Source: Longimicrobiales bacterium (GTDB lineage Bacteria > Gemmatimonadota > Gemmatimonadetes > Longimicrobiales > Gaopeijiaceae). From it: a stretch of DNA of 64,000 nt. The stretch is taken from the NCBI GenBank assembly GCA_963664435.2, contig CAXXKM010000003.1, positions 1,088,001 through 1,152,000 of the forward strand. Reading direction: 5' to 3'. Shown here in pieces: positions 31,884 to 61,333 of the stretch. The notes beneath the pieces were generated by a model. The model was given only the letters and a program-made list of their open reading frames with translations, was not told the origin of the DNA and ran no database searches. A program made the position numbers and the translations under genes. Positions within the stretch are counted from its first letter, which is position 1; each line of letters begins with the position of its first letter.

Positions 31884-31890
31884 GCGCCGC

Positions 31891-44987: not shown

Positions 44988-45335
44988 ATGAAGGACAGTT
45001 TCGCGATTCAGGAGCTGGGTGTCGCGCTGGTCAAGCTTGAGCGTCGCGTCGTCACCGGGTTCGATCAACTGAACGGACGGATCTCCGCATTGGAATCGAA
45101 GCTCGGCTCGCGGATCGACGACGTGGAGGCGCACGCGCACAAAGGGAACGTCGAGCTCGGGAGCAGGATTGAAATGGTGTCAGCCAAGTTCAAGCAGATT
45201 CGATACTCGCTCGACGGGCTGGAGGACCGCCTCGGCAAGAGGGTCGACGGATTGGACACCGAGGTCCACAAACAGCTCGGCGCTCTACAAGCCGCGGTCG
45301 ACGCGATCGGCGCGCACTTCGTCAGTTCGCAGTAG
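44988..45335 (+). CDS. Small coiled-coil hypothetical protein
   Basis: ATG preceded by an AAGGAG-containing purine-rich stretch; heptad-like repeats (LGSRID/LGSRIE/LGKRVD). Confidence 0.65.
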   Translation: MKDSFAIQELGVALVKLERRVVTGFDQLNGRISALESKLGSRIDDVEAHAHKGNVELGSRIEMVSAKFKQIRYSLDGLEDRLGKRVDGLDTEVHKQLGALQAAVDAIGAHFVSSQ

Positions 45336-46669
45336 TCGAGGTTCTCCTATCCTGATGATCGACCATTTGGCCAGGATGCGCGATCGGGACGAATGACGAG
45401 TTCCGCGACGTGAGCTATTGCCAGGTCCAGGCCGAGGCCGTGCAGTGCGCCGACTGCGGAGGTCCAACCACGGAGGTCTTCGGCAATTCCGGACGCCGGC
45501 GGCGCTGAGCGCGCTGTGTGCCCGCGTTGCCGCGAGGATGTGCCGCGCAAGAGATGGCAGCGGGACGCGCTTCTGCCGGAATGACGCGACGGGCCGCTGC
45601 CGCGAGTGCGGGGCGATCACTTGCACCCTTCATCGGCGCGGATGCGAGTTCGAGCACCATCGAGCGCGGGCGCGCGCCGAGCCCTCGAGTTGACAGGGGA
45701 AGAGGGGAGACTCGGCGTAGCTCTGGAAGGCGGCTCGATTGACCGCGTCGACACAATCGCATCCCTACTTCGTCCGTTCCGAATTGCGCACCATGTCTTT
45801 GGCAGCCCTCACGCGGGGTTCATATTGCGGCGCGATGCTGCGGGTCCACCGAAGAAGAAGTCGCAGCCGCGCGTGAGCGAACCCGCCAACGAGCGGTCGT
45901 CACCGCTCACGGTCGCGATGCCCGACGCGCACTGAATGAACCGCACGCGGATTCGAGTGACCCGCGAGCCCCGGAACGTCCTTGAAGGCATCCCGCACGG
46001 CACTACAGTAGTCCTCCAGAGCGTCGGGGACGGGGACGGGTTCCTCCCCTCCTGGAGGGGCCGGAGGCGGATCCGGCCAGCGAGGACGATGCAACCGTGC
46101 TGGCGGGATATCCGGTCTTTCGCATGGCGACTTGGAAGGTCGGCACCGATCCCCTATGGGCTTGGCGCGCCAATGTTTCCTCGGTCCTCGCCGTGCGCTG
46201 GTGACGTCACGAGCGGGATCTCCGCCTGACCTCCGCGAGGCGAACGACGAATCACGGATCGTTTTTCAACAACGCAGCGGAGGTTTCCCACGCCGTTGAC
46301 CCCATTTTTCCACGAATCGCCTTCGTGCCGGTCGCTTGACTCCCGCACTGTCGGCCATCAGGCGGGAACGCTTCGTGACTTGTCTCGCGGAGCAAACGTC
46401 TGGCGCTGGGAGAGACCAGGAAGTGGGCAGCCTTCGCGTGGGCACATACTTGAGCGGCACCCTCTCATCTGCCCCATCCCGTTCACATACTTGCTGAGCC
46501 GCTGCCCCCGCCGAGCACTGCTCGCGCATCGTCCACCCCCCGGGCCGTGCCTCCTCCCCGCCCTCTCCGCAGCCCGCCGGTCGGCCCCCGCGCCGCTTGC
46601 GCGACGGCATCGCGTCCCGGAGGTTGGACGGACGTGGCGCCTCCTCGGCCACGATAAGGAGGGCCGTTC

Positions 46670-46885
46670 ATGGCGAAACAGGCGATCGAAATCGAAGGGG
46701 CGGTCATCGAAGTCCTGCCCAACGCCACCTTTCGGGTCCGGCTGGAGAACGGCCACGAGATCCACACATATCTCTCCGGCAAGATGCGCCAGCACTACAT
46801 CCGGGTGTTGGAGGGCGACCGGGTGAGATGCGAGATGTCCCCCTACGATCTGTCGAAGGGCCGCATCACGTATCGGTACAAGTAA
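46670..46885 (+). CDS. infA: Translation initiation factor IF-1 (island-borne)
   Basis: [23 protein letters not shown]...[39 protein letters not shown]. Confidence 0.95.
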
Positions 46886-46899
46886 TTCGCTGTACACGC

Positions 46900-47150
46900 T
46901 CGCCCTGCGGTCGATGCCGACATCACAGAACCGGGCATGCTCACCGGCCGCGTGCCGCCAGCCTCGCCGGACTCGCCCCGGTCAGCCCGGGAGTCCGGAA
47001 ACTGAAGGGGACGGAGCTTCATCCAGGGCGGCAGGCATCGGGTGCGCCGGCTGCTTTGCATTGCGCGCGATGGCCTTGGTTCGGCACAATCCCGTCCTGA
47101 AGCACGAGTACGAGGCGTTCGTGGCCCGCGGGAAGCCGCCGAAGTTGACA
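46900..47150 (+). pseudogene. Frameshifted IS110-family transposase C-terminal remnant
   Basis: Across frames: ASLAGLAPV, FIQGGRHRVRRLL, VRHNPVLKHEYEAFVARGKPPK. Confidence 0.7.
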
Positions 47151-47214
47151 ACCCCAACGGCCCCGGTGCATTGTGGCCGCGCTGCACGACCCAGGGGACG
47201 GGGAGACGGCAATC

Positions 47215-47570
47215 ATGAGCAGATCGAATTCGTGGATGGCCGGGACGGCGTTGGGTCTTGCCATTGTAGCGGGACCAACGGTGGCGGCAGGCGAGGAACT
47301 CCCCCCCGACATCCGAAACGACCGCAACGTCGTGCGTGCCGATCGGCTGGTCCAAAACCAGGACCACGGTGCCGCGCTGGAATCCCTGGACGTGGTCTTG
47401 GCGCGGCAGCGCGGCAGGCCAGGAGCGGCATGAAGACCCCGGCAGAACTCTGGTTCAGGCACGCACGGACAGCTCCGGACGCCGGGTACGCCGAGACCGT
47501 GGCCACGTCGGTCGTCCGCTGCTTGGAGAAGGCGGGTCGGCGCGGAGCCTCCGCCGGGAAGACGGCGTGA
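47215..47570 (+). pseudogene. Frameshifted, truncated secreted protein (ELPP.I..DR...helical N-terminal domain)
   Basis: Signal peptide plus ELPPDIRNDR...GAALESLD, continuing in another frame as PAELWFRHA...SVVRCLEKAGR. Confidence 0.45.
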
Positions 47571-48071
47571 AGAAGTGGCGCCCACCCAAGGGACGGAAGC
47601 CGCCGAAGCGGAGGGTGGGGCAACGTCCGTCGCGCAAGCCACGGAAACAACGGCGGCGCCGCCGGGACAAGGGCCGGTGGGAGAAGGAAACAGACGACCG
47701 GATCGAGTGATCAGGTTCGGCACGTCGTCGGAACCACGCGTAGCGCGCCCAAACCTCTCTGCCGTATCGATCCGCCGGGGCCAACCGGAGCCGGTCGTAT
47801 GCTCCTGCCCGCGTCCAGCGACGTTGCCACTCCGGGGCGCGTGCGAGATGGGACCGTCGGAGGGCGGCGGGTCGATCACCCTGCGGGTCGCTGACTGCGT
47901 GGCTGACGGGCGCCGCACTTTGGTGTCCACGGTGGATCCGTGAACGTTCGGTAACCGCGCCACCCGGCCGGCGGGAAACTTCGAGAGCCGCGCCGCGCAG
48001 GTTGCGTGAGCCGGGGCTGGTGGGTGCCTCCTCGTCGTGGTGGTGGTCGCGCGGGACGGGCCGGTTGGGCC

Positions 48072-48232
48072 CGTCCGGCGGGTATTGAGTCGGTTCCGGC
48101 CTTCGGCGAACTCAAACTCTCCGGCCTTCGTTCGACGATTCGCGCTTCACGGACCGGACCGGAGTTACCGGTCTCCGCGCGCGTTCGGGGCGCTTGCGCG
48201 CCTCCGGTTCCGGCGGGCCTCGCCGTACCTGC
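48072..48232 (-). ncRNA. Putative omegaRNA/gRNA scaffold overlapping the 3' end of the tnpB-like gene
   Basis: Clear similarity to both 58.5-58.95 kb repeats; TnpB omegaRNAs are known to overlap the tnpB 3' end. Confidence 0.6.
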
Positions 48233-49194
48233 AGTTGGCGCCCGTGCCAACGGGCCTTGTACTCGAGCTGGCGCAGCATCTCGCTGCTGACGCCCTCGAC
48301 GATGATCGTGCCGGCGGCGAGGACGACGATGGTGGTGAGCTTGTGGTGGCGGTCGCGCTCGCGGTTCCTGATGTTCCTGGCGACATTGCGGAACCGTTCG
48401 AGAACGCGGGCCCGCCGCTTCGAGTCTTCGGTGCAGCGGCTCAAGCGGCGCTGGAGCCGCCTCATCCGCTGCCTGTCGGCGTCGGAGCGCTCGTCCGGTC
48501 CCGGGACTTCGATGGGCCTGCCGTCGAGTTCGACGGCGATGCCCGGGCCGTCCTGGCGCACCACGGCGACCTCCGCCGTGGGCGCGGCGGCATCGACCGG
48601 GCCGCACTCGAACACGCACGAGAACATCCAGCGCTCGCCGGCGTCGCGCCAGACCCGGCCGTACACCATGCCGAGCGTCGTGCGGCTCTTCGGGCCCTCG
48701 AGCCGGCCAGCGGGCAGGCTCCCGCCCAGCCAGCGCATCCAGCCGAACTTCGGCAAGCGGACGCGGTTGCCGTCGAAGCGGGTGCCGTGGCTGGCCACGT
48801 AGATCCCGGGGGCGCGTCCCTCGGGCTTGAACCTCGGCAGCCCCTGGCGCGCGCGTGGCTTGGTGTGCCAGTTGCGGAACGCTCCGTGCATGTCGGTCGC
48901 GATCTGGTAGATGGCGGTGGACGGGAACGGGTCGCGGTTCGGCCTGCGGCGCCACCAGTCCTGGGCGGCCGCGCGGAACTCCTTGCCGGTCATGTGCCGG
49001 CCCGTCTGGGAATACTGCAGGTTCGAGGCGCCGAGCAGGGCGTTCGACAGCTCGCGGAGCCCCTCCCGGCACAGGGCGAGCAGGCGCGCCTGCGGCCGGT
49101 TCGGGTACAGGCGGCACTGCCAGCCGACGTAGCGCGCTTCCCCGTTCGGCCGGGCCGCGCGCGCGCCGGGCGCGGTCGGCCGCTTGGTCGCCAT
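48112..49194 (-). CDS. TnpB-derived protein, truncated and apparently nuclease-dead (TldR-like)
   Basis: CRLYPNRPQ, PRFK, RVRLPKFGWMR, RRLQRRLSR, HHKLTT, IIVEG and QLEYKARWHGR match TnpB. RuvC-I G(I/V)D is absent (AVVRQ); zinc finger and RuvC-III are missing. Strong RBS, 16 bp after the upstream stop. Confidence 0.85.
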   Translation of the reverse strand: MATKRPTAPGARAARPNGEARYVGWQCRLYPNRPQARLLALCREGLRELSNALLGASNLQYSQTGRHMTGKEFRAAAQDWWRRRPNRDPFPSTAIYQIATDMHGAFRNWHTKPRARQGLPRFKPEGRAPGIYVASHGTRFDGNRVRLPKFGWMRWLGGSLPAGRLEGPKSRTTLGMVYGRVWRDAGERWMFSCVFECGPVDAAAPTAEVAVVRQDGPGIAVELDGRPIEVPGPDERSDADRQRMRRLQRRLSRCTEDSKRRARVLERFRNVARNIRNRERDRHHKLTTIVVLAAGTIIVEGVSSEMLRQLEYKARWHGRQLQVRRGPPEPEARKRPERARRPVTPVRSVKRESSNEGRRV

Positions 49195-49210
49195 GACGCT
49201 CCTCCCTCCC

Positions 49211-52200
49211 CTACCGGAGCTTGATCCGTCCGCGGACGCCCACCGAGTGCTGGGCCGCACCCAGCGCGCTCTCGCGCCGCGTGCCTTCCAGCCGCAGCCC
49301 GACCCCCGCGCCCAGATCGTAGCGCACGCCGCTCGAGAAGGCGCGCGTCCCGCTCTTGCCGAGGTAGAAGCCGCTGTAGGGCGTCCCCTGGAAGCCGGCG
49401 ATGCCGTAGGCCACTTCGCCGTCCACGTTGGGGCCCATGCCCAGGTCCTGGCCGCCCACCGCGTCGGACACCCCGCGCTCCCAGAGCTGGTTGACCCCGC
49501 TCCTGTGGTCGCCGTACGCGGGCGCCACCCGGACCTGCAGCCCCTGGCCCGGGGCCGCCGGGTCGAACATGAGCATGCCGCCGAGGCCCCATTCCTCGTA
49601 GCCTTGGCGCGCCGAGATGACGAACCGGCCGCGGCCCTCCGCGGTCAATCCCAGCCCGGAGTTCGTGTAGCGGAGCCCGCCGCCGACCTCCGCGCTGGTG
49701 CCGTTGATGCCGTCGCCGTTGTCGTAGCGCATCCCGCCCTCGAGCACGAACGCCATCTCCTGCCCCGTGTCGGTGCGGAAGCCTTGCGTCAACTCAAGGG
49801 CAAGCTTGGCGCGCTGCATGTCGAGCGTCACCGTGCCGATCTGCTCGGTGCCCTCGACCTCGAACCGGCCGCTCCAGCCCTCGGCCTTGAGGCTCACGCC
49901 ACCGATGCCGCTCGTGAACAGCTGGTAGCTCGCGCCTCCCGCCCCCGTCATCATGCTGGCGGGGCTGGTGCGGAGCCCTTCCCGCTCGTCGTCGACCTCG
50001 ATGTCGCCCCGGCCGATCCCGGCCGAACCCCACACCGAGGCGCCGCGCGCGCCGGGGAACCAGGCCACGTAAGGATGCGCGCTGGTCATGGTGGTGCCGT
50101 AGGTGCCGGCCACCGGTCGGGCGCCGGTCTTGTCGGTGAAGTCGAAGGAGCCCGAGTTGTACGAGCCCGCGACACCCGCCAGGATGTCCGGCCCCACGCG
50201 CATGTCCACGCCGACGTGGGCGCTCACCATGTTGCCCTTCCAGTCGAGCTCGCTCGCGCCGGGTTCGCCCATGTAGTGGTACTCGCCCGCACCCCAGCTC
50301 GCCATCTGCATGCCGGTCGCGGACTGCTGCGGCGCGTCCGGGGTGCCGAACGGCATCAGGAATGAGGTGCCGCCGAATAGGGCGGCCAAGCCGGCGCCGT
50401 CATTCTGGCCGAGGCCGAGGCCGCCCGGACCCGGCGCGGACAGGCTCGCGGCCATCGACGACAGTCCGTTCGTCTCCACGCTCTGCTCCATGCCCATCCC
50501 GTTGGCCACCGCGTTGACGCGGTTTGCGATCGCCGAGACGGTGCTCGAGGTCATCGCCGCGGCCACCTGCGGCAGGACGCGGGTGTTGAGCCGGCCCGCC
50601 CGCTGCACGGGGTCGTCGGTCGCCGCCGTTGCGCTCGCAGACGCCGCGCCGGTGCCCGCCCGGTTGATCGCCGACACCCGGTAGTGGCGCACGCTGCCCG
50701 GCTGCAGGGCGGTATGCGAAAAGGTGGCAACCGTGGACTCGGTGTTGGTGACCAGGTCCGCCCAGGCGGCGCCCGTCTCCGACACCTCGATGCGGTACCC
50801 GGTGATGGGCGCACCGCCATTGTAGTCGGGCGCGAGCCAGAACAGGTCGATCTGGGTGGGCGAGACATCGGTGGCGACCAGCCCGGTGGGCGCGTCGGGC
50901 ACCGTCGCGTCCGTGGTGGAGCCCGCGACCCGCGACGCGTTGCCCACGCCGATCCGGTTGATCGCCGAGACGCGGTAATGGCGCGTCGAGGCCGGCGCCA
51001 GCCCGCTGTGCGTGTAGACGGTGGCCGTGCTGCGCGTGGCGGCCACCAAGTCCTCCCAGCTCCCGCCCCCGTCGGCCGTGACCTCGATGCGGTAGCCGGT
51101 GATGCGGGCGCCCCCGTCGTCCGCGGGTGCCTGCCAGGAGAGGACGATCTGCGAGGTGCCGGCCGCATCGGCGTTGAGACGTCGCGGCACGCTCGGAACA
51201 GTCGCCTCGGTGGTCGCCCGCGCCACGTTCGAGAACGGCCCCACCCCCGCGAGGTTGATGGCGGCGACCCGGTAGTGGCGGGTGGTTGCGGGCCTCAGGT
51301 TCACGTCCGAGAACGCCGTCGTCGCCGAGTTCGTGTTGCGGCGGATGATGTTCCAGGTCGCGCCCTCGTCGTCGGAGGCCTCGACGCGGTAGCCGAAGAT
51401 CGAGACGCCGCCGGTGTAGCGCGGCGCGTTCCACGACAGGTCGATGCGCGAGGTGCCGACTGCCCGGGCCGTCAGCCCAGTCGGGGCCGCGGCGAAGTCC
51501 GCGTGCGTGAGGGCCGCCCCCGTGAGCGACCACTGCCCGGCGCCCACGCGGTTGATGGCCGCGACCTGGTACTGGTACCGGGTCACTGGGTCAAGCCCGG
51601 TGTGCGTAAAGGTCGTTGTCGTCTCCTCCGTGTTGGGACGGATGATGATCCAGGAGCGATCGTTGGGCCCGAGCATCCGGATGCTGTAGCCGGTGATGCG
51701 CGCCCCTCCGTCGCTCTCCGGCCGGTCCCAGACGAGGAGGACGCTGTTCGGTCCCGTTCCGCGGGCGCGTACGTTCTGCGGCTGCCCGGGAGGCGCCGCA
51801 TCGGTGGTGCCTTGGGCCACGTTGGAGGCGCGTCCCGTACCCACGCCGTTGATCGCGGACACGCGATAGAACCAGGTGGCGGCGGGGCCGAGATTGCTGT
51901 CGGTGTAGATGGTGGCCGTGCTGCCCGTGCCGGGCACATGGATGATCCAGCCGCCGCCGCCGGTGGCGGACCTCTCGATGCGGTAGCCGGTGATCGGGCT
52001 GCCGCCGTCGTCGGGCGGGGCGGACCAGGTGAGGAGGAGTTCGTCGGTTCTCCTCGCGCCCGGAACCACGCTCAGTGCTATGGGCGGGCTCGGAGGGGTG
52101 GCGTCGGTGGTCGCCTGGGCGGTGTTGGACCACGGGCCCAGACCCGCCCGGTTGATCGCTGCTACGCGGTAGTGGCGCGTGGTGGCGGGGCTGAGCTCGT

Positions 52201-53509
52201 CGTCGGTGTAGGTGGTGGCCGTGGACTCGGTGTCGGCCTCGAGCCGCGTCCAGGGGCTGCGTCCGGCCCGCGACCATTCGATGCGGTAGCCGGTGACCGG
52301 CGTCGAGCCGCTGGAGGAGGGGGCGCGCCACCTCAGTTCGATGGCGGACATCCCCCGGGCCTGCGCCGTCAACGACCGAGCCGCGTCCGGCAGGACATCC
52401 TCGGTGGTGGCGTCGGCGACGTTCGAGGGGTCACCCGCCCCGTTGAAGTTGATGGCCGACACCCTGTAGTGCCGCGTGACGCCCCCGGTGAGATCCTTGT
52501 CGTCGCGGTAGCTGGTGTCGGTGTTCCGGGTATTGCGCTCCAGAGTCGACCACGGGTCGCGGCCGTCTTCCGACCACTCGATGAGGTACCCGGTGATCTC
52601 GCGACCGCCATTCGAACTCGGCGCCTCCCACTCCAGTATGATCGCGTCGGGGCCGTCGGCCTCCGCCGTGAGCTTGCGCGGCTCTCCGGGCACCCCGGTG
52701 CGCGCCTCCCCGGTGACGTTTCGCACCGCCCTGTCGAAGCCGAACGCGCGATTGCCGGCCAGATCCCGAAGCGCGTCGGCGCCGCGGTCGTCGTAGAACA
52801 CCCGAACCGCGTCGAGCGTATCGACGGGGCTTGCCAGAAGCAGGAACACATCGCGGGTGGCCACTTCGACCCGGGACACGGTCTTGACGTCGTGTGACAC
52901 GGTGCTATTTCCGAAGGCGACTTGGAAATAGCTGGTCGATGGGACGAAATCCTCATCGAGGTCTTCGTCGAAGGCGATGACGACTTCGTCGCCGTTGACC
53001 TTCGCGTCGCTGACTACAGGGCCCCTGGTGTCCACGTTGATGTTGACCACTCTCGACGGGGTATTCCCCTCCTGCGAGCTGTTCTGCACCACGTTCCCAG
53101 GGATATGGAAGAACACCAGGCCGTCATATTGTTCCGGCATCCTCATCGTGACGACAAACCTCCTGCCTTCGTCACTGTCCAGCGGATCGGCCACTGCACA
53201 CGCCGCGGTCGGGTGCGTGCACGTGATGTTGATGTCGTCGACCGTGAAGCCGGTCACGCTCTGCGAGAAACGGATGACGACGCTGGCAGAGTTCTGTGTG
53301 GACCCGATCCAACTCCATGAAATCGAGGTCGTGGGGGGGACGGCCACGTCGCTCGCCACTGGGGATTCCACAACCGACGGGACGCCCGCACGCGAACCGC
53401 CCACATATGGCTCCTCAGCCTGTACGCCCGCAGATGGAACCAGGAGCGCGCAGACCACTGCGGCCGCCAAGAGGGAACGGACGGGTACGCCAGGCTGATT
53501 CGGAATCAT
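49211..53509 (-). CDS. Large surface protein: Ig-like and SwmB-like regions, 7 fibronectin-III repeats, autotransporter-like beta-barrel
   Basis: Signal peptide; 7 repeats of W.AP..GG..ITGY.IE...YRV.AIN..G.G; C-terminal beta-barrel-like region. Confidence 0.85.
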   Translation of the reverse strand: MIPNQPGVPVRSLLAAAVVCALLVPSAGVQAEEPYVGGSRAGVPSVVESPVASDVAVPPTTSISWSWIGSTQNSASVVIRFSQSVTGFTVDDINITCTHPTAACAVADPLDSDEGRRFVVTMRMPEQYDGLVFFHIPGNVVQNSSQEGNTPSRVVNINVDTRGPVVSDAKVNGDEVVIAFDEDLDEDFVPSTSYFQVAFGNSTVSHDVKTVSRVEVATRDVFLLLASPVDTLDAVRVFYDDRGADALRDLAGNRAFGFDRAVRNVTGEARTGVPGEPRKLTAEADGPDAIILEWEAPSSNGGREITGYLIEWSEDGRDPWSTLERNTRNTDTSYRDDKDLTGGVTRHYRVSAINFNGAGDPSNVADATTEDVLPDAARSLTAQARGMSAIELRWRAPSSSGSTPVTGYRIEWSRAGRSPWTRLEADTESTATTYTDDELSPATTRHYRVAAINRAGLGPWSNTAQATTDATPPSPPIALSVVPGARRTDELLLTWSAPPDDGGSPITGYRIERSATGGGGWIIHVPGTGSTATIYTDSNLGPAATWFYRVSAINGVGTGRASNVAQGTTDAAPPGQPQNVRARGTGPNSVLLVWDRPESDGGARITGYSIRMLGPNDRSWIIIRPNTEETTTTFTHTGLDPVTRYQYQVAAINRVGAGQWSLTGAALTHADFAAAPTGLTARAVGTSRIDLSWNAPRYTGGVSIFGYRVEASDDEGATWNIIRRNTNSATTAFSDVNLRPATTRHYRVAAINLAGVGPFSNVARATTEATVPSVPRRLNADAAGTSQIVLSWQAPADDGGARITGYRIEVTADGGGSWEDLVAATRSTATVYTHSGLAPASTRHYRVSAINRIGVGNASRVAGSTTDATVPDAPTGLVATDVSPTQIDLFWLAPDYNGGAPITGYRIEVSETGAAWADLVTNTESTVATFSHTALQPGSVRHYRVSAINRAGTGAASASATAATDDPVQRAGRLNTRVLPQVAAAMTSSTVSAIANRVNAVANGMGMEQSVETNGLSSMAASLSAPGPGGLGLGQNDGAGLAALFGGTSFLMPFGTPDAPQQSATGMQMASWGAGEYHYMGEPGASELDWKGNMVSAHVGVDMRVGPDILAGVAGSYNSGSFDFTDKTGARPVAGTYGTTMTSAHPYVAWFPGARGASVWGSAGIGRGDIEVDDEREGLRTSPASMMTGAGGASYQLFTSGIGGVSLKAEGWSGRFEVEGTEQIGTVTLDMQRAKLALELTQGFRTDTGQEMAFVLEGGMRYDNGDGINGTSAEVGGGLRYTNSGLGLTAEGRGRFVISARQGYEEWGLGGMLMFDPAAPGQGLQVRVAPAYGDHRSGVNQLWERGVSDAVGGQDLGMGPNVDGEVAYGIAGFQGTPYSGFYLGKSGTRAFSSGVRYDLGAGVGLRLEGTRRESALGAAQHSVGVRGRIKLR

Positions 53510-53574
53510 CGTGCCTTCTCCGCGTCAGGTGAAATGCGCGGTGGAATAGTCATTTGCTTACCGGTCGTCTGGTG

Positions 53575-53617
53575 AGCGTCACCCCCCGTTCGGGAGTCCC
53601 GAACGGGGGGTGACGCT
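53575..53617. terminator. Perfect ~20-bp-stem hairpin between the two surface-protein genes
   Basis: AGCGTCACCCCCCGTTCGGG / CCCGAACGGGGGGTGACGCT. Confidence 0.65.
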
Positions 53618-53632
53618 GTCCCGCGGCCTGCG

Positions 53633-53673
53633 ACCATCAGCCTGGCTGACGGTTAGTCAGCCAGGCTGATGGT
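53633..53673. terminator. Perfect 18-bp-stem hairpin just after the lipoprotein stop
   Basis: ACCATCAGCCTGGCTGAC-GGTTA-GTCAGCCAGGCTGATGGT. Confidence 0.65.
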
Positions 53674-53683
53674 GTTGAAGGGG

Positions 53684-56600
53684 TTATGGGACATCTACTG
53701 GCGTACCCTCGGTGAAGTCGCCAGCACTGCCCTGTCTCGAGTCGACGCGAACTCTGAACGGCTTGTTGAGTTCGACGTCCGTGATCGCAATCGCCGTTCC
53801 ACCCACCGTGTTCCAGCTCGCGGTGAAGTCATGAATCCACTCCAAGCTCCAACTCCTGGTGGTGCTTGCGATGGTGGCGGGCTCTCCACCTGAGGCGACG
53901 AGCCACAAAGTCGAACCAGTGTTTTCGGAGGCGACCTCAACCATGATCCGGAACTCGGAACTGGTGTTGCTATCGGCGTCCCAAGTGACGGTGAGGGTGT
54001 CGGCAACGGTGGTATCGGCAGTCGCCGCACGACTCGCAGTGACACCGCTGGTCGACGGATCGACCGCGCCGACCGTGACCGGATCGGATTCGATCGTGAA
54101 GGTAAGGTCCGAATCGGTGGGGTGTGCGACCGACGTCACCACTCGAACCATGAAGGTGGTATCGCCCGGCGACGTGAACGTGTAGCTGCCCGGGACATTG
54201 ACCGTAGTGCCGAGGCTGTCGCGCGTCACCAAGGTTGCGCTCGCATCCGTGAAGGTGCCGGTGTAGTTGTGCTGCACCTCGTGCGTGGCGGGGCTGGTGA
54301 ACCCTTCGGGCACGTCCGTGGCGCTGTCGACGAACTTCACGCTGATGTTGCCATCGTAGCGTTCGGATTCGTCGATGTCCTCGGTGGACTCGTCGTCCTC
54401 CGTGCGGGCACGCGATGCGCTGAGGTTCCTAGCCCCAGGCGACAGCGCCTCGATCGCGCCGAAGTTCAAGCTCTGACCCGGTGCGACGCTCACCCTCTGG
54501 TTGTCGTTCGGATACTTGAAGCTGTGGTTCGCCAACGACGCTTCGATGTCATAGGCGCCGAACGGTACGCTGAGCACGAAGGTGCCTCTCGCGTTGCTGG
54601 TGCTCAAGACGTCGTCCCCGGCTGCGCCTGCGACCACGTTCGTGGCCGTGACCGTAACGCCACCCATGGCGTTGCCGTCCGGACCTCTCACCCGGCCCGA
54701 AATCGTCGCATGCTGGAAGCCGGTGAAGTTGATGCCCGAGACCGCCGATCCGGCGTGGGCCGGAACAGACAGCGTCGCAGGCGCGAAGCTCATGCCGTCC
54801 TTCGACACGGTCACATCGGCGCTCTCGCCGAGGTCCTTGGCCGCGAATTCTGCCGTGTAGGTGCCGTCGGCGCCCGTCACGAGCTTGCCCCTGTTCGCAC
54901 CGGTCTTGGCCGCGTTGGTCGGGGCATTGCCGTCAACCTTGATCTCCGCACCGGCGATCGGCGCGCCGCTGCCGGACGCGGTGACCGTACCGCTGATCGA
55001 GGCGATCGTGCCTACGCCCGAAAGATCGACGTCCTGCCGGATCCGGCTGTTTGCGGCAAAGGCCTGGATGTTCCGCGTCTCCCCGCTTCCTCCATGGGCG
55101 GTCTCGACGAAGACGCTGTTCGTGTGCGTCACGGTGCCGATTTTGCGGCTCGCCACGTTCGGCACGTACTCCGCGATGTAGCGGCCGTGTACGTCGGACA
55201 TCGCTACAACACCGTTCACGTTCACGTTCACGCTGTCCACGGGGAAATCCTCCGCGTCCTTCACGTAGCCGTAGACGGTGGTCGTCGCCGGCGTGACGTC
55301 GAGTGAGACGTCACCCGCGAGCGGGTTGAAGGCGTTGCCGACCATGGCCGTGGCGCCCTTCGGACCCAGCCTCGCCCGCCAGCCGTCCGTCACGCTGGCC
55401 TTGTAGACGCCGGCCGCGATGTTGTTGAAGGCGAACTGGTGGGTCTCGTCGAGCACTTCATTGCCCTTGGCGGTCTCACCCGGCCCCCGGACCGGCTTCT
55501 CCGTAGTGGTGGCGGACTCCTCGTCACCCGCGAGATTCTTGCCCTCGACCGGGCTCAGGCTGACGGAAATGCCGGCTACGAACGTGGGGGGGGCACCCTC
55601 GGGATCATATACGTCGACTCCGTCGGTCTTGCCGAACGAGAATCTGTCATCGTTGGCAGTCTCGGTGCTCTTGACGACCACGTTCTTCCAGATCAGCCCG
55701 CTCACCGAGTGCGTGCTGACGTAGGCGAACGACGAGCAAGCGTCGTGGTCCTGCGGGTTCTCGTCCTGCAGCGGGCAGAGCGAAACCGTGTGGCTGTAGC
55801 CGCCCTGCGCACCGAAGTGGCCGCCGGTGATGCCGTTGGCATCCGTGCCGGTGTAGGCGGCGAGCTCATCGGCATGCCCGCCCTCATCGAGGATCATGAT
55901 GCTGAGGTCGGTGTTGTCGGCCTTCGACGCGTTGGCGATCACGTTCATGTCGGCCGGCACGTTGCTGAAGACCCACGCACCGCCGTCACCATTGTCTTTC
56001 GGTTCGCTGATGCTGTCCGCAGCCGTGAACGCGCGCGAGCGTCCGGAGTCGTCGATGTAGCGGAGGTCGACATCGACCTTGCGGTCGGCGCCCTTACCGT
56101 CCCTCTCGTCACCGCCGAGGATGTTGCCGGTGTAGCCTTCGACTTGATCAAGCTCGTGGTGCACGTAGACCTTGAGGGTCTGGGTCGTGAACGCCACCTC
56201 GATCATGTCGGCGTTCTGGGTGCCCGCCAGCATGAGGCCGGTGTGGGTGTACTCGACCGAGCCACCGTCGTAGCTCTCGCCGCCGTCCAGCGTGTTGGCC
56301 TGGTCGTCGTCGACGGCGATGGTGAAGGTCGCCGGCAGGTCGTCGGCTCCCACGGTGGTCGTGAACGCGGCGACGCCGGCTGTGTCCAGCTTCTCCGGCG
56401 CGCCTGCGACCGAGTCTTCGCCTGCCATGACGCTGATGGCCCAGTTGGCGAGCGTGTCGCCGCCACCGTACTCGGTGGTGACGGTGGCACCGCTGATGGC
56501 CACGTCGACGTTCAGGTTGACGATGTCGTTCTCGTTGGCGCCCGCGGCCATGTTGTACTGCGGGTTCCACGACACGACCGTCATGCCGTCGGCCACATGG

Positions 56601-58330
56601 TAGCCGTCGGCGGAGACGCTCGCGTGGACCATGTTGCCGCTGGTGCCGGCGCGCGCGACCCGGATCATCACCGAGCCTTCTTCGCCGGTCATGCCGCTGC
56701 CGATCTTGGTCTCACCGGCCGCGTCCGAGAAGAAATCGACGATCGCGCCGGGAAGCGCGGCACCCATCTCTTCACCGCTCCTCAGCGAGGCTGTGAAGTT
56801 GACCCTGGTGTGCGTGATGTCGAACGGAACCGACTGCGTCACAGCCTCGCCGACACCGAGGGCGACCGCGTAGCCCTCGCCGGGTCCGCCGTAAGCCAAG
56901 TCGTTGGCCGCGAGAGCCGCGGCGACCGTGGCGTTGATGGTCACGACCAACTGGTACGGGCCGGCGCGGAGGCCTGTGAAGGAGAACGCGCCGGTCGAGT
57001 CGGTGAGGCTCACCCGCTGCTCGTTGACGCCCGGGCCCACCAGCACCACCGGAAGACCGGCGTGCGCCAGCGGATGCTCGCCCTCGTCGAACATGTCGTT
57101 CTTGGTCGCCTCGTCAACGTACGCCATGCCGGACACGCTCGCGGTGCGCGCGTGCGCGCCCTCGAAGTTAATGATCGCCGACTCGTCGTCGCCGACCGTC
57201 ACGTCCGTGCTCATCGACTCGAAGACGTAGGCGTCGCTGTCGACCGCGATCGAGACCGTGTAGTCGCCGGCCGCCAAGCCCGCGAAGGAGTACTGGCCGC
57301 CCGCGTCGGTCATCGCGGTGCGGTCGTCCGCGCCCGCCAGCGTGACCGTGATCTCGCCGAGGCCCATGCCCTCGACGCTCACCCGGCCGCTGATGCCGGA
57401 GGTGCGGAGCAGGACGCCGGTGAACGACACGGTGCTGGTCTCATCGAGATCCACGTTCACGTCTTGGGACGTGGACGCGAACTCGTAGTCGCGCGCGTCG
57501 AAGTCAGAGATCGAGACCGTGTAGGCGCCGGGACGCAATTCCTCGAACCGGTACATGCCGTCGGCGTCGGTCATGATGGTGTAGCTCTCGTCGGCGGGAC
57601 CGCCGCTCAGGGTAACCGTCACCCCAGCAAGGCCCTCGCCTTCGATGATCACCTGGCCCTCGACCGCGGAGGTGCGGATGAAGTGGCCCGTGAAGTCGGC
57701 CTGGCCGACATCGCCGACCTCGACCGCTACCTCGACCATCACCGTCTCGAAGGAGACGTCCTCCGGATAGTCGCTGATCGTGACCGTGTAGGTGCCGGCC
57801 CGGAGCCCGGTGAACGCGAAGCCGCCGGTCTCGTCGGTCTCCATGGTCTCGCCCATGGCGTGCTCACCGCCCAGCGTGACCGTAACGCCTGCCAGCGTTT
57901 CGGGCTGGCCGTCGCCGCCGCTCATCATGGCGTCGGCCGCAACCACGTTGCCGACCACTGCGGACGAGCGGATATACTCGCCGGCGAAGTTGAGTTGGAC
58001 GTTCTGACCATCGGTCGCGATGGTCGCGGACTGCGTCACTTCGGCGAACGTCGCGTCCTCGGGGAAGCCGCTGATGGTGACCGTGTAGGTTCCCTCTTCC
58101 ACGCCCGAGAAGGCGAAGTTGCCGCCCGACCCGGTGGTCGTGGTCGCACCGGACGACAGGGTGGCGGTGACGCCGCTGGCGGCCGTGCCCTCGATCGTCA
58201 CCGCCCCGGAGATCGTCCCCACGGCAGCAGGCTCCGGCGGGGGCTCCACTATCGGTGGAGTGCCCTCGTCGCAGGCGGTAATGGTAACGGCCAGCAGCAG
58301 CGCCAGCCCGTGCTTGGTAAAACGGTTCAT
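53684..58330 (-). CDS. 1548-aa acidic surface lipoprotein with carboxypeptidase-regulatory/SdrD-B-like repeats
   Basis: Lipobox ITAC; repeats of G(I/V)TVTL.G....T...G.(F/Y).F.GL.AG.Y.V.IS; GGAGGG RBS. Confidence 0.85.
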   Translation of the reverse strand: MNRFTKHGLALLLAVTITACDEGTPPIVEPPPEPAAVGTISGAVTIEGTAASGVTATLSSGATTTTGSGGNFAFSGVEEGTYTVTISGFPEDATFAEVTQSATIATDGQNVQLNFAGEYIRSSAVVGNVVAADAMMSGGDGQPETLAGVTVTLGGEHAMGETMETDETGGFAFTGLRAGTYTVTISDYPEDVSFETVMVEVAVEVGDVGQADFTGHFIRTSAVEGQVIIEGEGLAGVTVTLSGGPADESYTIMTDADGMYRFEELRPGAYTVSISDFDARDYEFASTSQDVNVDLDETSTVSFTGVLLRTSGISGRVSVEGMGLGEITVTLAGADDRTAMTDAGGQYSFAGLAAGDYTVSIAVDSDAYVFESMSTDVTVGDDESAIINFEGAHARTASVSGMAYVDEATKNDMFDEGEHPLAHAGLPVVLVGPGVNEQRVSLTDSTGAFSFTGLRAGPYQLVVTINATVAAALAANDLAYGGPGEGYAVALGVGEAVTQSVPFDITHTRVNFTASLRSGEEMGAALPGAIVDFFSDAAGETKIGSGMTGEEGSVMIRVARAGTSGNMVHASVSADGYHVADGMTVVSWNPQYNMAAGANENDIVNLNVDVAISGATVTTEYGGGDTLANWAISVMAGEDSVAGAPEKLDTAGVAAFTTTVGADDLPATFTIAVDDDQANTLDGGESYDGGSVEYTHTGLMLAGTQNADMIEVAFTTQTLKVYVHHELDQVEGYTGNILGGDERDGKGADRKVDVDLRYIDDSGRSRAFTAADSISEPKDNGDGGAWVFSNVPADMNVIANASKADNTDLSIMILDEGGHADELAAYTGTDANGITGGHFGAQGGYSHTVSLCPLQDENPQDHDACSSFAYVSTHSVSGLIWKNVVVKSTETANDDRFSFGKTDGVDVYDPEGAPPTFVAGISVSLSPVEGKNLAGDEESATTTEKPVRGPGETAKGNEVLDETHQFAFNNIAAGVYKASVTDGWRARLGPKGATAMVGNAFNPLAGDVSLDVTPATTTVYGYVKDAEDFPVDSVNVNVNGVVAMSDVHGRYIAEYVPNVASRKIGTVTHTNSVFVETAHGGSGETRNIQAFAANSRIRQDVDLSGVGTIASISGTVTASGSGAPIAGAEIKVDGNAPTNAAKTGANRGKLVTGADGTYTAEFAAKDLGESADVTVSKDGMSFAPATLSVPAHAGSAVSGINFTGFQHATISGRVRGPDGNAMGGVTVTATNVVAGAAGDDVLSTSNARGTFVLSVPFGAYDIEASLANHSFKYPNDNQRVSVAPGQSLNFGAIEALSPGARNLSASRARTEDDESTEDIDESERYDGNISVKFVDSATDVPEGFTSPATHEVQHNYTGTFTDASATLVTRDSLGTTVNVPGSYTFTSPGDTTFMVRVVTSVAHPTDSDLTFTIESDPVTVGAVDPSTSGVTASRAATADTTVADTLTVTWDADSNTSSEFRIMVEVASENTGSTLWLVASGGEPATIASTTRSWSLEWIHDFTASWNTVGGTAIAITDVELNKPFRVRVDSRQGSAGDFTEGTPVDVP

Positions 58331-58549
58331 CTTTCCCTCCTGGGAGTGGGTTGCGGTCAGCGAGGAAACATGGAGCCTCGCGGCTCACGCTTACGGAGCA
58401 ACAACGGTGCCACCCGAGGAAGCCCGGTTTTACAGTGGGTTTCGGCCCGTACGCTCCGGCCTGGGACCGCCGCTCCCGGTTTTCTGACGGTCAAGACGTC
58501 AGAATTCTGGTGGCGCCCCGGGGCCGGGCCCCGCGTAGCGGTTAAAGCG

Positions 58550-58738
58550 ATTCCGGCAGTCGCTGGGTCGGTCCCGGGGGGTGCCCGGCTCTGTATCGCG
58601 ATTCACGGTTCAGCGACCGCCACGGTAGCCGAAGCCCCATGGTAACCCGGTCTCCGCGTGCGTTCGGGACGCCAAGGTCCCCGGTTCCGGCGTGCCTCGC
58701 CGTACCGTAACAGGGTTGCGCGCCGCGTTTGACGCCGC
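58550..58738 (-). ncRNA. omegaRNA-like scaffold copy A (putative guide follows at <=58549)
   Basis: 189-bp direct repeat of 58765-58952; homologous to the tnpB 3' end at 48072-48232. Confidence 0.7.
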
Positions 58739-58764
58739 CAAGCCGCACTATAGCGGCACACCAA

Positions 58765-58952
58765 ATTCCGGCAGTCGCTGGGGCGGTCCCGCGGGCCGCC
58801 CGACTCTGCATCGCGATTCACGGTTCAGCGACCGCCACGGCAGCCGAGGCCCCACGGTAACCCGGTCTCCGCGTGCGTTCGGGACGCCAAGGTCCCCGGT
58901 TCCGGCGTGCCTCGCCGTACCGTAACAGGTTGTGTGCCGCGTTTGACGCCGC
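58765..58952 (-). ncRNA. omegaRNA-like scaffold copy B (putative guide 58739-58764)
   Basis: 188-bp direct repeat; its 5' end translates as NAAHNLLRYGE, resembling the TnpB RuvC-III/C-terminal motif. Confidence 0.7.
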
Positions 58953-59794
58953 TCCCCATGGCGTCGCCCCTGCGGTCACCCCAGCCCTCTCTCGATCCTC
59001 CAGTTTCGCGATCCGGCGCTCGTTCGGGCCGAGGCCGCTGACAGGGCCTTCCGCAGGCCCGCGCGGGCGCGCCCCTTCGGCAGCCGCTCGCGGTATCGGT
59101 CGAACTCCCTCTGTCTCGTCCTCGGACAGCATGAAGAAGTCGGTCTCGTTCATTTCGGTTACTCAAGGACCCCAAGGGCCCCCGCTCCAGACCTACAATT
59201 GTGCGGAAAACGCGCAAGCGATGCTAGCTCCGTTGCAGTTCTCACCGCAACTTCGGGTCCTTCGGAAGAGGGGGCAGCGGAGAGTGCTCTTGGTCCGGCG
59301 ACGCAGAAGCCCTGGTGCCCAAGCCACCCGCCAACGATACAGCGGGCAGTACAAAGAACGCGGCAGGAGCCGGGGCTTGCTGGTTCTGGCTTCCGCTCAG
59401 CCATCGACGACCCTCCGGTAGAGGCCGCAGACGAATGGCGAATTCGAGGCCGGCCGCCTTCGCCGACTCCTGGAGGTCGGCGAACTTCTCGGCGTCGACG
59501 CGCTTCTCGCTGTACTCCTCGCCGGGAGCAGCCGAGGTATCGCAGTCCTTCCAGAATCCCTTGTTGAAGTCGCTTTGCCGCCCCTGCACCGGTAACCGTG
59601 CTCGCAAACGAGGGGTGGGGGAGTCTCCGACGGTCCAGTAAGCCCTCGCCGGGGCTGCCCGGACCTTGAACCGGTGGCGTCCGTGCGCAACGCCTCCGCC
59701 GACCTGCATCTCCGGTCCTCCCAAGCCCCCTACCGGAAGTCCCGGGCGTCCCGCCGAGGGCATTCAGACGCGCTGCTGGCGGCAGTGTCCTTTG

Positions 59795-60249
59795 GCTACT
59801 TTACGGTATCGACCATCCTCGAACGTTATCGGACATAGGGCGCCTCGCTACGAGTTGACTCGCCTGCAAGAGGCTTGTCACCGTTCCTTGCATGGCAAGG
59901 GGCGGCTCCGCCCCCCCGACCCCAAGGGCCTTCCGCGCCGGTGTCCGCCGAAACCCGGACAGGGCGGACGGCGCAGAGGTGAAGAGTGTCCTCGTCCCGA
60001 GACCGGCGCCATTGGTCGACGGGCAGGCGGGAAAGGGATGGTGCAGGACACCACCCAACTCTTCAAGCTGTTCGCCGACAACCCGGACTTCCGGCGGTGG
60101 CTGACGGACGCCGTTTTCCGGCTGGCCTACGAAGCGACGGGCTGACGAGCGCGGGCGGCGTTACGGGGGCGTGTTTCCGCCCCGTTGGCGACGACCGCCG
60201 CCTGCTACTTTACGTTATCGGACCTCCTCGGACGTTATCGGCCAATAGG
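59795..60249. repeat. Two ~45-bp imperfect direct repeats (59795-59839, 60204-60249) containing CGTTATCGG boxes
   Basis: GCTACTTTACG(G/T)TATCG...CCTCG(A/G)ACGTTATCGG...ATAGG occurs twice. Confidence 0.75.
60035..60145 (+). pseudogene. C-terminal remnant of a type I restriction endonuclease R subunit
   Basis: DTTQLFKLFADNPDFRRWLTDAVFRLAY resembles HsdR C-termini (recalled similarity). Confidence 0.55.
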
Positions 60250-60849
60250 AGATTTTCGACGGGTTGACTTGCCGGCGAGCGCCTCTTCAGCGTTCCAGGT
60301 ATGGAGACGCAGAAGTACCTGTTCAGCATGCGGGTCGGCACCTCCCTCGGGGACACCGGCGCGCCGTCCCCGAGGGCATTGGTGATGAAGGCCTCCGGTT
60401 CGGACCTCGGCGATGGCCCCGTCCCCGAAGCCCCCAAGGTGGACGCGGATCGGCTTCGGCGGCCTTCGTCCCCGCCGACTGGATTGAAACCAGTCGCGGA
60501 TGAACTCCGTCATATGCCGCCCTTCGGCTCACCGAAGCGTGGAGGGCAGCACGAGCAAACGAGGCGAAACACCGGAGGAGACGCACGTAGTCAGGTTGAT
60601 CCACGCCACGGCGGAACCGGTGCCCGCGCCCCTCGACAGGGACGCTGGGGGGATCGGTCGCCGCTTTGGCTTCGGGGGTACATGGACGGCGCGGCATTGC
60701 TGGCCACCATCCCACCGTTGGCCGCGCTTCGCGAGGCCCGTCTGAACGGGTTCCCCGGAGCGCGTGCGGTGGTGCGCCGCCACGGCATTGGCGGCAGCCG
60801 GCGACGGGTCTCGGACACGTCGCCGACGGGGTCGTTGGACGCGGCTAAG

Positions 60850-60890
60850 GGCGGTAAGCCAGCCTACCCGTTGTCATACAACGGGGCTGG
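60850..60890 (-). other. Putative oriT with a ColE1-type nic motif CTGG^CTTA
   Basis: TAAGCCAG at 60855-60862 next to the inverted repeat CCCGTTGT-CAT-ACAACGGG, ~130 bp upstream of mobC. Confidence 0.65.
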
Positions 60891-60994
60891 CGAGGGGATG
60901 GCTCCCGCCCCCCCTTCGAACCCCCCGCGCGTCGCGCTCCCGTGGAGGTCGCGCTTGGGGGCGCCGCCCCCATCCCCCGCGCCGGTGCGGCGTG

Positions 60995-61333
60995 ATGCCA
61001 GAGCGCCGCACCGCCGTCGTCACCGCCCGCGTATCGGCGACCGAGTTCGCCGACTGGCGGGCCAAAGCCGCAGCCGCAGGCGTGCCCCTGTCGGCGCTCA
61101 TCCGGCGAGCCATGGCCCGTACTCGGACCTGGACGGCCCGCGCGGCCGAGGTCGAGCGCGAGCGCACCCGGGAGGCCGGCCGCATCGGCAACAACCTCAA
61201 CCAGATCGCTCGGTGGGCAAACACCCACAAGGGGTCGGCCGAGGCCGTCGAGGTGATCGCCCGCCTTGTCGCCATAGAGCGGGCCCTCACGGCGCTTGCT
61301 CGCTTCGAGAGCCCGGACTCCGATGCACATTAA
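60995..61333 (+). CDS. mobC: Relaxosome accessory protein MobC (MbeC-like)
   Basis: RHH-like N-terminus plus RIGNNLNQIAR motif. Confidence 0.9.
   Translation: MPERRTAVVTARVSATEFADWRAKAAAAGVPLSALIRRAMARTRTWTARAAEVERERTREAGRIGNNLNQIARWANTHKGSAEAVEVIARLVAIERALTALARFESPDSDAH

Follow-up and report, generated by a model that had tools for sequence, protein, structure and literature searches.

A probable nuclease-dead TnpB of TldR type beside giant surface-protein genes in sponge-derived Gemmatimonadota

Transposon-encoded nucleases can turn into RNA-guided transcription factors (TldRs), and the roles of most TldR clades are described as unclear (bioRxiv 10.64898/2026.09.22.753285). TldRs associated with fliC, oppF, and csrA (Wiegand et al.) retain the fold of the transposon nuclease TnpB with a decayed RuvC triad and without the C-terminal zinc-finger/RuvC part; they lack the transposase gene tnpA, are linked clade by clade to non-transposon genes, and use an RNA scaffold that overlaps the 3' end of the gene and ends in a short fixed guide. 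In the corresponding accounts of oppF-TldR, the guides measure 9-11 nucleotides (nt) (bioRxiv 10.1101/2023.11.30.569447), the heteroduplex spans 9 bp with the lid and C-terminal domain disordered (Xiao et al., bioRxiv 10.64898/2026.09.22.753285), and the target lies downstream of the transcription start site, with paralogs being regulated (bioRxiv 10.64898/2026.09.22.753285). Here we describe a locus within a 64,000-nt window (the whole stretch of DNA analyzed, G000:C3:1088001-1152000; contig CAXXKM010000003.1 of GenBank assembly GCA_963664435.2) from a Longimicrobiales bacterium, in which a TnpB-like gene follows the genes for a giant lipoprotein (hereafter LIPO) and a fibronectin type III (FN3)-repeat protein. 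Our analysis makes it very probable that the 360-amino-acid (aa) TnpB-like protein is a domesticated, nuclease-dead TnpB of the TldR kind, representing a new clade with a new gene association, and we somewhat favor the view that a 9-10-nt RNA guide directs it to rival LIPO loci, which it represses.

The locus resembles the described TldR systems in the fold and the lost catalytic parts of its protein, in the absence of tnpA, in the clade-specific link to non-transposon genes, in an omegaRNA-like, putative scaffold overlapping the gene 3' end, and in a putative short fixed guide (9-11 nt in TldRs). Its candidate target, moreover, is a paralog of a neighboring gene and lies at or downstream of a promoter, as with fliC versus fliCP and the oppA paralogs. 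It differs in host and cargo (Gemmatimonadota from sponge metagenomes; operons of LIPO and FN3/autotransporter genes with sigma54-type promoters), in having three subclasses within one genus, each with its own position and guide, in the pairing of one subclass with an AraC-like open reading frame (ORF), in the presence of tandem orphan scaffolds, in a putative target-adjacent motif (TAM) that reads WTGAA rather than TTTAA, and in being known from sequence alone. We found no description in print of a dead TnpB associated with LIPO and FN3 genes in Gemmatimonadota, and the 2023 TldR preprint (bioRxiv 10.1101/2023.11.30.569447) nowhere uses the string 'Gemmatimon' in its main text; the supplementary lists of 506 TldRs, which stand apart from the texts consulted, may hold one.

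The window genome comprises 4.51 Mb at about 70% GC in three contigs (C1 to C3; 96% complete), and most of the locus is present in several sponge-metagenome runs; no RNA run containing it was found. On the minus strand the order is tandem scaffold unit B, unit A, a sigma54-type promoter, LIPO, a palindrome, the FN3 gene, and the TnpB-like gene (Table 1). An earlier note, made from the letters of this DNA alone, had listed two scaffolds, LIPO, FN3, and the TnpB-like gene in this order, and all were found where it placed them. Its reading of the TnpB-like gene as lying 16 nt behind FN3 with a ribosome-binding site of its own agrees with the start position and with the sequence GGGAGGGAGGAG; the third, diverged scaffold copy that it saw at the 3' end of the gene is borne out by two 26-nt blocks (48168-48229) shared with the upstream units at 92-96% identity. 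Its label for the FN3/autotransporter gene holds for the seven fn3 domains, and the autotransporter beta-domain at the C-terminus is marginal (PF03797, 26.9 bits vs a cut-off of 26). Paralogs of the FN3 gene lie on C1 and C2, and the palindrome between LIPO and FN3, which could be an attenuator or a processing site, is partly kept at the C1 paralog locus.

The TnpB-like protein passes the Pfam OrfB_IS605 profile narrowly (31.1 bits vs a cut-off of 30.5, E 3e-7), scores 75.5 bits on the NCBIfam guided_TnpB model, below the cut-off of 100, and matches ISDra2 TnpB at E 1e-10 in a phmmer search of PDB sequences. An AlphaFold (AF2) model with an 18-sequence input has a mean predicted local distance difference test score (pLDDT) of 78; the best Foldseek match of this model is 8h1j (E 7e-21, TM 0.60), followed by 8exa, 8iaz, and 8bf8, with dCas12f and Cas12f structures ranking after the TnpB structures. 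The N-terminal WED/REC architecture is kept. In pairwise and multiple alignments RuvC-I, which reads VGxDxG in relatives, reads VAVVRQDG, and every one of the 16 aligned truncated members has another residue in place of the RuvC-I Asp; the RuvC-II Glu is retained in the window protein and in 15 of those 16. The lid is deleted, 19 residues being gone after the RuvC-II Glu, and in place of the absent zinc finger and RuvC-III stands a short Arg/Pro-rich tail encoded by scaffold DNA. The 34 C-terminal residues encoded within the scaffold (327-360, pLDDT <50) are predicted to be disordered. Judged by alignment and modeled structure, the protein has a TnpB fold and is nuclease-dead and C-terminally truncated, so the dead TnpB of the earlier note and the profile and structure comparison that it called for agree.

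Among 1.84 billion representative proteins, 437 matched at E<=0.001, only 11 of them at E<=1e-30, and the family falls into three grades. The first consists of full-length relatives of 390-423 aa (P0046, P0051, P0052, P0054, and others) with GxDxG, the Glu, the zinc finger, and DRDxNAA intact; the second, class 3, has about 405-421 aa (P0036 and P0044, and also members in genomes G005 and G007), reads VGVALG at RuvC-I, and is otherwise intact; the third comprises the truncated class 1, to which the window protein belongs, and class 2, both with VRQxG, without the 19 lid residues, and without the C-terminal domain. In a maximum-likelihood tree of 37 rows, rooted at the midpoint only, classes 1 and 2 group together (100/100) with class 3 as their sister (100/99), and the three together are sister to the intact TnpBs. 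Read from these sequences, the active site is decayed stepwise, with the loss of one residue followed by truncation.

A search of 40 related genomes found the family in 15 of the 18 other genomes of the genus, at 1-10 copies per carrying genome, and in none of the 22 genomes of other genera. The window genome holds four copies, which are its only OrfB_IS605 matches: the window gene, an identical copy in a duplicate on C3, and two class-2 genes on C1 (53-54% identity). ORFs are open over 326-360 aa in 30 of the 31 extracted, at 52-87% identity. Of 15 pairs compared for dN/dS (Nei-Gojobori), one was unusable; the other 14 gave values of 0.23-0.69 (median about 0.33), mostly 0.23-0.49 and 13 of them below 0.5, the highest coming from a pair with a dS of 0.016. 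The row G011_c1 (mis-extracted, 3 aa; the copy holds a TGA) was excluded from the dN/dS range and from the tree. Neutral decay, the contrary outcome named in the earlier note, is thus not what the family shows; on codon-level evidence it is under moderate purifying selection.

Profile searches of the whole genome found no Y1 transposase tnpA (PF01797), no serine recombinase (PF00239), and no zinc-finger TnpB (PF07282), which extends to the entire assembly the earlier observation that no tnpA or IS607 recombinase adjoins the gene. ISDra2 TnpB (8h1j, 8exa, and 8bf8) is the best match by sequence and by structure and shares the WED/REC part, the RuvC-II Glu, and the placement of the omegaRNA, putative in the window system, at the gene 3' end; the window system differs from it in the missing RuvC-I Asp, lid, zinc finger, and RuvC-III, in having no TnpA, and in not being multi-copy in the manner of an insertion sequence (IS). 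The TAM of ISDra2 TnpB is TTGAT. No transposon left end was recognized at the TnpB-like gene, although no systematic search for one was made. An active IS200/IS605 TnpB would not be expected to have a broken triad, no zinc finger, and no TnpA partner, as found here.

The position of the gene relative to the surface-protein genes is conserved. We fetched 33 stretches (some overlapping) around matches in 17 other genomes and searched them with the three window proteins; with homologs accepted at >=150 aa aligned and E<=1e-20, 26 of these stretches, and each of the three loci of the window genome, contain LIPO and/or FN3 homologs. In six of the seven stretches without a match the contig ends on the side in question, and the seventh (L056) shows a LIPO-like start sequence. 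Each class has a stereotyped position: class 1 is found after FN3 or next to LIPO, class 2 is divergent from LIPO at a distance of about 1-1.4 kb, and class 3 is directly upstream of LIPO and co-directional. One locus of G007 has the order class 3, LIPO, FN3, class 1; the window shares this arrangement except that only two scaffolds remain of the class-3 gene. G005 shows the opposite, with class 3 intact and class 1 in stop-containing fragments behind FN3. The conserved synteny for which the earlier note suggested a search is present in many genomes of the genus.

Five LIPO N-termini are encoded in the genome (the window gene and four paralogs), and all five genes have a sigma54-type promoter sequence, TGGCAC-N5-TTGC, about 85 nt before the ATG (other sites at C1:913588, C1:1100473, C2:12889, and C2:55083). 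The pattern occurs six times in the genome, five of these before LIPO genes, and its reversed control seven times; because the reversed pattern is about as common, it is the placement and not the count that is telling. The genome contains rpoN, and no bacterial enhancer-binding protein was identified as activator for these promoters. At one class-2 locus of another genome (L142, G018:C23) the adjacent LIPO seems to lack its 5' untranslated region (5'UTR) and start, the sigma54 promoter running straight into sequence that matches LIPO codons from about 20 onward, and in G006 the LIPO 5' regions are nearly identical among copies.

Directly upstream of class 2, coordinate comparison places an ORF of about 290 aa (ORF-X) in more than 20 loci (e.g., C1:913963-914823 and C1:1100899-1101750). 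ORF-X is found in the same 16 of 19 genomes as the TnpB-like gene and is absent from the three genomes without that gene. Its matches to the AraC-type helix-turn-helix are weak (HTH_18, E 0.01-0.07), its look-alikes are hypothetical proteins of Gemmatimonadota, and more distant paralogs lie elsewhere.

Twenty-one scaffolds of all classes could be aligned, with the invariant blocks GGTACGGCGAGGC, CGCCGGAACC, GGAGACCGG, CCGGTC, GAATCG, and GCCGGAA. In the RNAalifold structure of 22 pairs, 98.5% of cells pair, versus 18-35% with the partners slid; there is one double change only, GC in 15 scaffolds and AU in 5, which splits the class-3 type from the rest. The first hairpin, judged by eye, keeps its pairing with sequences that differ between classes (GGGAC/GTCCC, GGCGC/GCGCC, and GGGGCC/GGCCCC). 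Single-sequence folding of the scaffolds is no better than that of shuffles (z -1.4 and -0.2), and no Rfam family reaches gathering scores in the window, with chance-level matches only at the two scaffold regions. Near both scaffold regions a sigma70 promoter scan found none, and terminator-like sites are no commoner than in shuffles; the GC-rich hairpin after the class-1 tail has a predicted stability of -25.3 kcal/mol (z -2.9), with 0 of 200 shuffles as stable.

All scaffold classes end in ...CCGGAA, followed by a class-specific tail, of which 8-10 nt are conserved within a class, and then a locus-specific sequence. The class-1 tail CCGACTCAAT is present in all six class-1 scaffold ends caught by a regular expression (five genomes), and CGAATCAG in all 26 class-2 ends matching the scaffold-end expression (21 with G and 5 with C as ninth base); beyond both tails the sequences are unrelated between loci. 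Self sites aside, the 12-mer GAACCGACTCAA is present at one place in the genome, the start of the LIPO gene at locus C1a (C1:913490; AGGAGGTTCCATGAACCGACTCAAACTC), where the class-1 tail has an exact 9-nt match behind the start codon (ATGAA followed by CCGACTCAA). Both LIPO starts on C2 match the class-1 tail with one mismatch; the adjacent LIPO gene begins ATGAACCGTTTTACC and is thereby spared by the match. The class-2 string (T)GAACGAATCAGGG lies antisense, 22-35 nt before the ATG of two C2 LIPO genes and about 55-65 nt downstream of their sigma54 promoters. Fourteen of the 19 genomes have a single TGAACGAATCAGG site (the window genome has two), which always lies in the 5'UTR of a C2-type LIPO gene; the three genomes without the TnpB-like protein have none, and the reversed pattern has no match in any of the 19. 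With the boundary set after GGAA, the putative guides are CCGACTCAA behind ATGAA and CGAATCAGG behind TTGAA.

Longer guides were tried and rejected: 16-nt tails (<=2 mismatches), 20-nt tails, and 12-nt tails counted from GGAAC/GGAAT match only their own loci or do so at chance level, and the sequence behind the conserved tails has no distinctive match in the genome. A site outside the TGAA context, AGAACGAATCAGG, which contains the class-2 tail, is kept in 12 genomes at codons 4-8 of an unrelated gene (MSTEERIRHLGR..., C3:1640626 here); its likeness to the tail is probably due to chance.

The two scaffold units upstream of LIPO are 95% identical over 165 nt (93.7% over 189 nt) and carry different tails. 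They begin where a full-length gene would read ...LNAARNxLRYGE, and the residues NAAHNLLRYGEARRNRG are legible before unit B. By this sequence evidence the upstream scaffolds are of another subclass and derive from the 3' end of a full-length zinc-finger relative; the earlier note was right that tandem scaffolds exist here, and they are not copies of the scaffold of the TnpB-like gene itself. G002 and G017 have single-copy orthologs of unit A before LIPO genes of the same type, and the ortholog in G005 lacks about 60 internal nt. Before unit B lies a short ORF start (MNETDFFMLSE...), whose DNA sequence but not reading frame is conserved in G002. In four public runs, short-read contigs match both flanks at 100% identity and break at the array (58624 to 58893), so the copy number of the units is without independent confirmation.

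For tail A, the genome has a single site with ATGAA followed by TCGCTTTAA; it coincides with the start codon of a gene for a 1069-aa SusC/RagA outer-membrane protein (C1:893433; 514.7 bits on TIGR04056), a match with a chance of about 0.004-0.012. Tail B has no TAM-flanked match in the genome and none in the genus with <=1 mismatch. Taken as a fair test of the TAM, the array thus gives one matched tail of two (p about 0.01), which on these sequences is suggestive only. Two observations weigh against it. The orthologs of tail A in G002, G017, and G005 have no exact target, the SusC orthologs in G002 and G017 starting ATGAAGCAGAAC where the tails read TCGCTTGACC and that in G005 agreeing at 6 of 9 positions, so that the tail A match fails a covariation check. 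Class-3 tails (TCGTCACCG and TCGTGACTG), likewise, have no target in the genomes that carry them, and only scattered matches elsewhere.

The multi-guide array proposed in the earlier note does not stand up well to these results: the class-3 protein cognate to scaffolds A and B is missing from the window genome, tail A has a candidate target in this genome only, tail B has none, and the G005 ortholog is deleted internally. From sequence, the tandem scaffolds are more likely relics of class 3 than working guides, and their continued use as guides is doubtful. Against the general background of TranC and early type V CRISPR arrays, the scaffold plus variable-tail unit repeated in tandem could be likened to a forerunner of a repeat-spacer array; it differs in having two units only, a 165-nt 'repeat', no adaptation genes, and no cognate protein. 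A CRISPR array proper would hold more than the two units seen here, and Pfam scans of selected window ORFs found no cas-like gene.

These observations can be brought together in a model in which RNA production, the TAM, DNA binding, and repression are all predicted steps. The TnpB-like gene is probably co-transcribed with the operon behind FN3, and its 3' end would yield an omegaRNA-like scaffold ending in the fixed 9-10-nt guide CCGACUCAAU. The complex of protein and RNA would bind DNA carrying the guide sequence behind a TGAA-type motif, which here would be the start-codon region of another LIPO paralog, the adjacent LIPO being spared, and an R-loop at this site would block RNA polymerase; expression of one surface-protein locus would then silence a rival. 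Class 2, together with the AraC-like ORF, is divergent from other LIPO genes, and its putative guide CGAAUCAGG matches the 5'UTR of a third LIPO type, whereas the tandem scaffolds would be what remains of the full-length third class found at the same position in related genomes. The earlier proposal that surface-protein paralogs are repressed gains from the exact 9-nt match at another LIPO start where the operon's own LIPO differs. A wider scheme, a chromosomal network of dead TnpBs with guides against different LIPO paralogs (the window module acting on the C1 type, its counterpart on C1 acting on the C2 type, and the orphan scaffolds serving as additional guides in trans), is a tentative extension that we consider rather unlikely. 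Such a network would let the cell choose, by RNA guidance, among surface-protein variants.

Several points tell against RNA-guided repression of LIPO loci. The putative TAM WTGAA was read post hoc off the first two matches, which are therefore no fair test of it, and a chance match is expected for 2.5-5% of guides: among the 8,412 [AT]TGAA sites of the genome, a random 9-mer with five G+C finds a match in 2.5% (synthetic) to 4.9% (genome-drawn) of trials (0.4-1.2% with three G+C). A search of genome contigs with the full-length relative P0046, meant to derive the TAM independently, found no relative. When guides are mapped with a shared 5' motif, as the earlier note suggested, the tails of classes 1 and 2 match LIPO 5' regions behind WTGAA, a result weakened by the way in which the motif was obtained. 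G017 and G018 have class 2 and no exact TGAACGAATCAGG site was found in them; the class-2 tail reads CGAATCAGCG in G002, G004, and one of three G007 copies, with only 8 nt matched. The class-2 site in the 5'UTR resembles the last 14 nt of the scaffold too (TGTGAAGGTTGAAC vs TGCGAAGGCCGGAAC), and a related 5'UTR, without the GAAC insertion, exists in G006, which lacks the TnpB-like gene; on these sequences the class-2 match may reflect common descent, at least in part. LIPO paralogs are abundant in the two complete genomes without the TnpB-like gene (at least 20 in G006 and about 8 in G008), and the protein is accordingly dispensable for the existence of the LIPO family. Covariation in the scaffold amounts to a single compensatory pair, with 14 of 22 pairs invariant, and dN/dS values of 0.3-0.45 indicate moderate constraint only. 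The two matches carry weight by their location: of the five LIPO 5' regions they hit two, and they fall precisely where scaffold and tail meet.

The alternative that survives best, although we regard it as unlikely, is that the tails are the true right end of a former transposon, that their likeness to LIPO genes is a scar of old insertion or recombination, and that the protein does something else, such as binding to the locus that encodes it or working through the AraC-like partner. The conserved scaffold end could indeed be a transposon right end, since the tails are invariant across loci as such an end would be, the variable flanks behind them lack a distinctive genome match, and both the shared scaffold-proper sequence in the 5'UTR and the related 5'UTR in G006, where the protein is absent, fit this origin. 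Set against it, two different classes match a LIPO 5' region each, behind TGAA and exactly where scaffold gives way to tail, the likeness stops sharply after 9-10 nt with no fading, and known TldRs use guides of that length. Descent and function are compatible as explanations of the tails: the guide of a TnpB is by origin the flank of the right end, so an element that landed behind the ATGAA of a LIPO gene would have been born with a guide against LIPO. Present use of the tails is favored, on sequence and by analogy, by the sharp 9-10-nt conservation, by the escape of the adjacent LIPO, and by the close parallels with oppF-TldR.

It is still less likely that the genes are decaying remnants of IS200/IS605 type, once inserted preferentially at LIPO 5' ends, carried along by locus duplication, and functionless. 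Decay of this kind is seen around them, in the orphan scaffolds without a cognate protein in the window genome, the internal deletion of scaffold A in G005, the class-1 fragments with stops behind FN3 in the same genome, and the TGA that interrupts the G011 copy, and the window copy itself is part of a 16-kb segmental duplicate. Functionless remnants would not be expected to keep 30 of 31 ORFs intact at 52-87% identity, to give dN/dS below 0.5 in 13 of 14 pairs, to hold a stereotyped position relative to LIPO across 15 genomes, or to have the same inactivating changes fixed in both truncated classes, and the genome has no transposase for recent spread.

The least probable explanation is activation, in which the dead TnpB would bring ORF-X (class 2) or the sigma54 machinery to a site chosen by RNA, as in dCas12f-sigmaE: it draws on the pairing of ORF-X with class 2 (over 20 loci) and its presence in the same set of genomes (16 of 19), on LIPO promoters that are all sigma54-type and hence activator-dependent, on scaffold A lying about 130 nt upstream of the promoter, and on RNA-guided transcription by dCas12f-sigmaE being in print (PMC13472631), and is countered by the absence of a sigma factor or AAA+ activator among the neighboring ORFs scanned, by the weak HTH_18 matches of ORF-X, by the position of the matched sites in the 5'UTR or at the start codon, downstream of promoters, where binding is expected to block transcription, and by the lack of ORF-X at the class-1 gene of the window. 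The dCas12f-sigmaE system (Hoffmann et al., Nature 2026, PMC13472631) is similar in linking a dead protein of the TnpB/Cas12 lineage to a transcription protein and to outer-membrane-protein genes; the present system differs in having no sigma-factor domain in neighboring ORFs, an AraC-like ORF as partner, and sites downstream of promoters.

A domesticated TnpB at this locus would provide a third, independent setting for TldR-like proteins, in a little-studied sponge-dwelling phylum and a multigene family of giant surface proteins, with three stages of decay side by side and candidate targets evident from the genome sequence. Should the matches be functional, the system would constitute a natural RNA-guided switch among surface-protein paralogs and offer very small DNA-binding proteins (a core of about 325 aa) with 9-10-nt guides; should they be no more than scars, the locus still records how such guides are born when a transposon inserts at a gene start. 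The tandem scaffolds, for their part, bear on the step from a single guide RNA or omegaRNA to arrays.

Table 1. Features of the window discussed in the text (window positions; '.' marks a feature without strand)
Feature	Position	Strand	Remarks
GC-rich hairpin GGACGGGCC-loop-GGCCCGTCC, without U-run	48054-48076	-	After class-1 tail
Conserved class-1 tail CCGACTCAAT, putative short guide	48084-48093	-	Followed by genome-specific sequence
omegaRNA-like scaffold, class 1	48094-48229	-	Overlaps gene 3' end and runs past stop codon; ends ...GGCCGGAA
Class-1 TnpB-like (TldR-like) gene, 360 aa	48112-49194	-	Pfam, PDB phmmer, AF2/Foldseek, alignments
FN3-repeat protein gene, 1432 aa	49211-53509	-	fn3 E 6e-84, 7 stretches
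Perfect 21+21-nt palindrome, 1-nt center	53575-53617	.	Between LIPO stop and FN3 start; 100% complementary
LIPO, 1548-aa lipoprotein gene	53684-58330	-	CarboxypepD_reg/SdrD_B/SpaA-like repeats (Pfam); lipobox VTITAC
sigma54-type promoter TGGCACCGTTGTTGC	58398-58412	-	Upstream of window LIPO; TGGCAC-N5-TTGC
Tail A TCGCTTTAAC	58541-58550	-	After scaffold A
Unit A, with orphan scaffold A of class-3 type at 58551-58738	58550-58738	-	Repeat family D6, alignments
Tail B TTTGGTGTGCC	58755-58765	-	Followed by small hairpin GCCGC-TATAGT-GCGGC
Unit B, with orphan scaffold B of class-3 type at 58766-58952	58765-58952	-	Preceded by TnpB C-terminus relic …NAAHNLLRYGEARRNRG
Relaxase-domain ORF	61296-62867		PF03432 E 4e-7
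Tyrosine recombinase	62803-63999		Adjoins relaxase ORF; element 60301-63999

The relaxase and recombinase genes at 60.3-64 kb belong to a separate multi-copy element next door, and the LIPO loci are chromosomal paralogs found across the genus; the mobilizable island envisaged in the earlier note is not well supported. About 8-10 sites in the genome repeat the relaxase part (85-89% identity) and more than 25 the recombinase part (about 74-82%); one copy of the element sits between FN3 and LIPO at the C1b locus. An inverted duplicate of 16,030 nt (99.87%) relates window positions 41957-57985 to G000:C3:1778193-1794204, reaching the end of C3; it copies the TnpB-like gene, FN3, and LIPO cut at about residue 115, and its junction abuts the end of a recombinase-like ORF and an AT-rich stretch. 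The regions 43400-48100 and 58950-60300 have a weak coding signal, no ORF with the third-position G+C (GC3) pattern typical of genuine genes, and no Pfam match except for an HU-like gene (43524-44015). Farther off, positions 14700-32000 hold an ordinary cell-division and cell-wall cluster (mraW, a penicillin-binding protein transpeptidase, Mur ligases, mraY, murG, ftsA, ftsZ, and an M23 peptidase).

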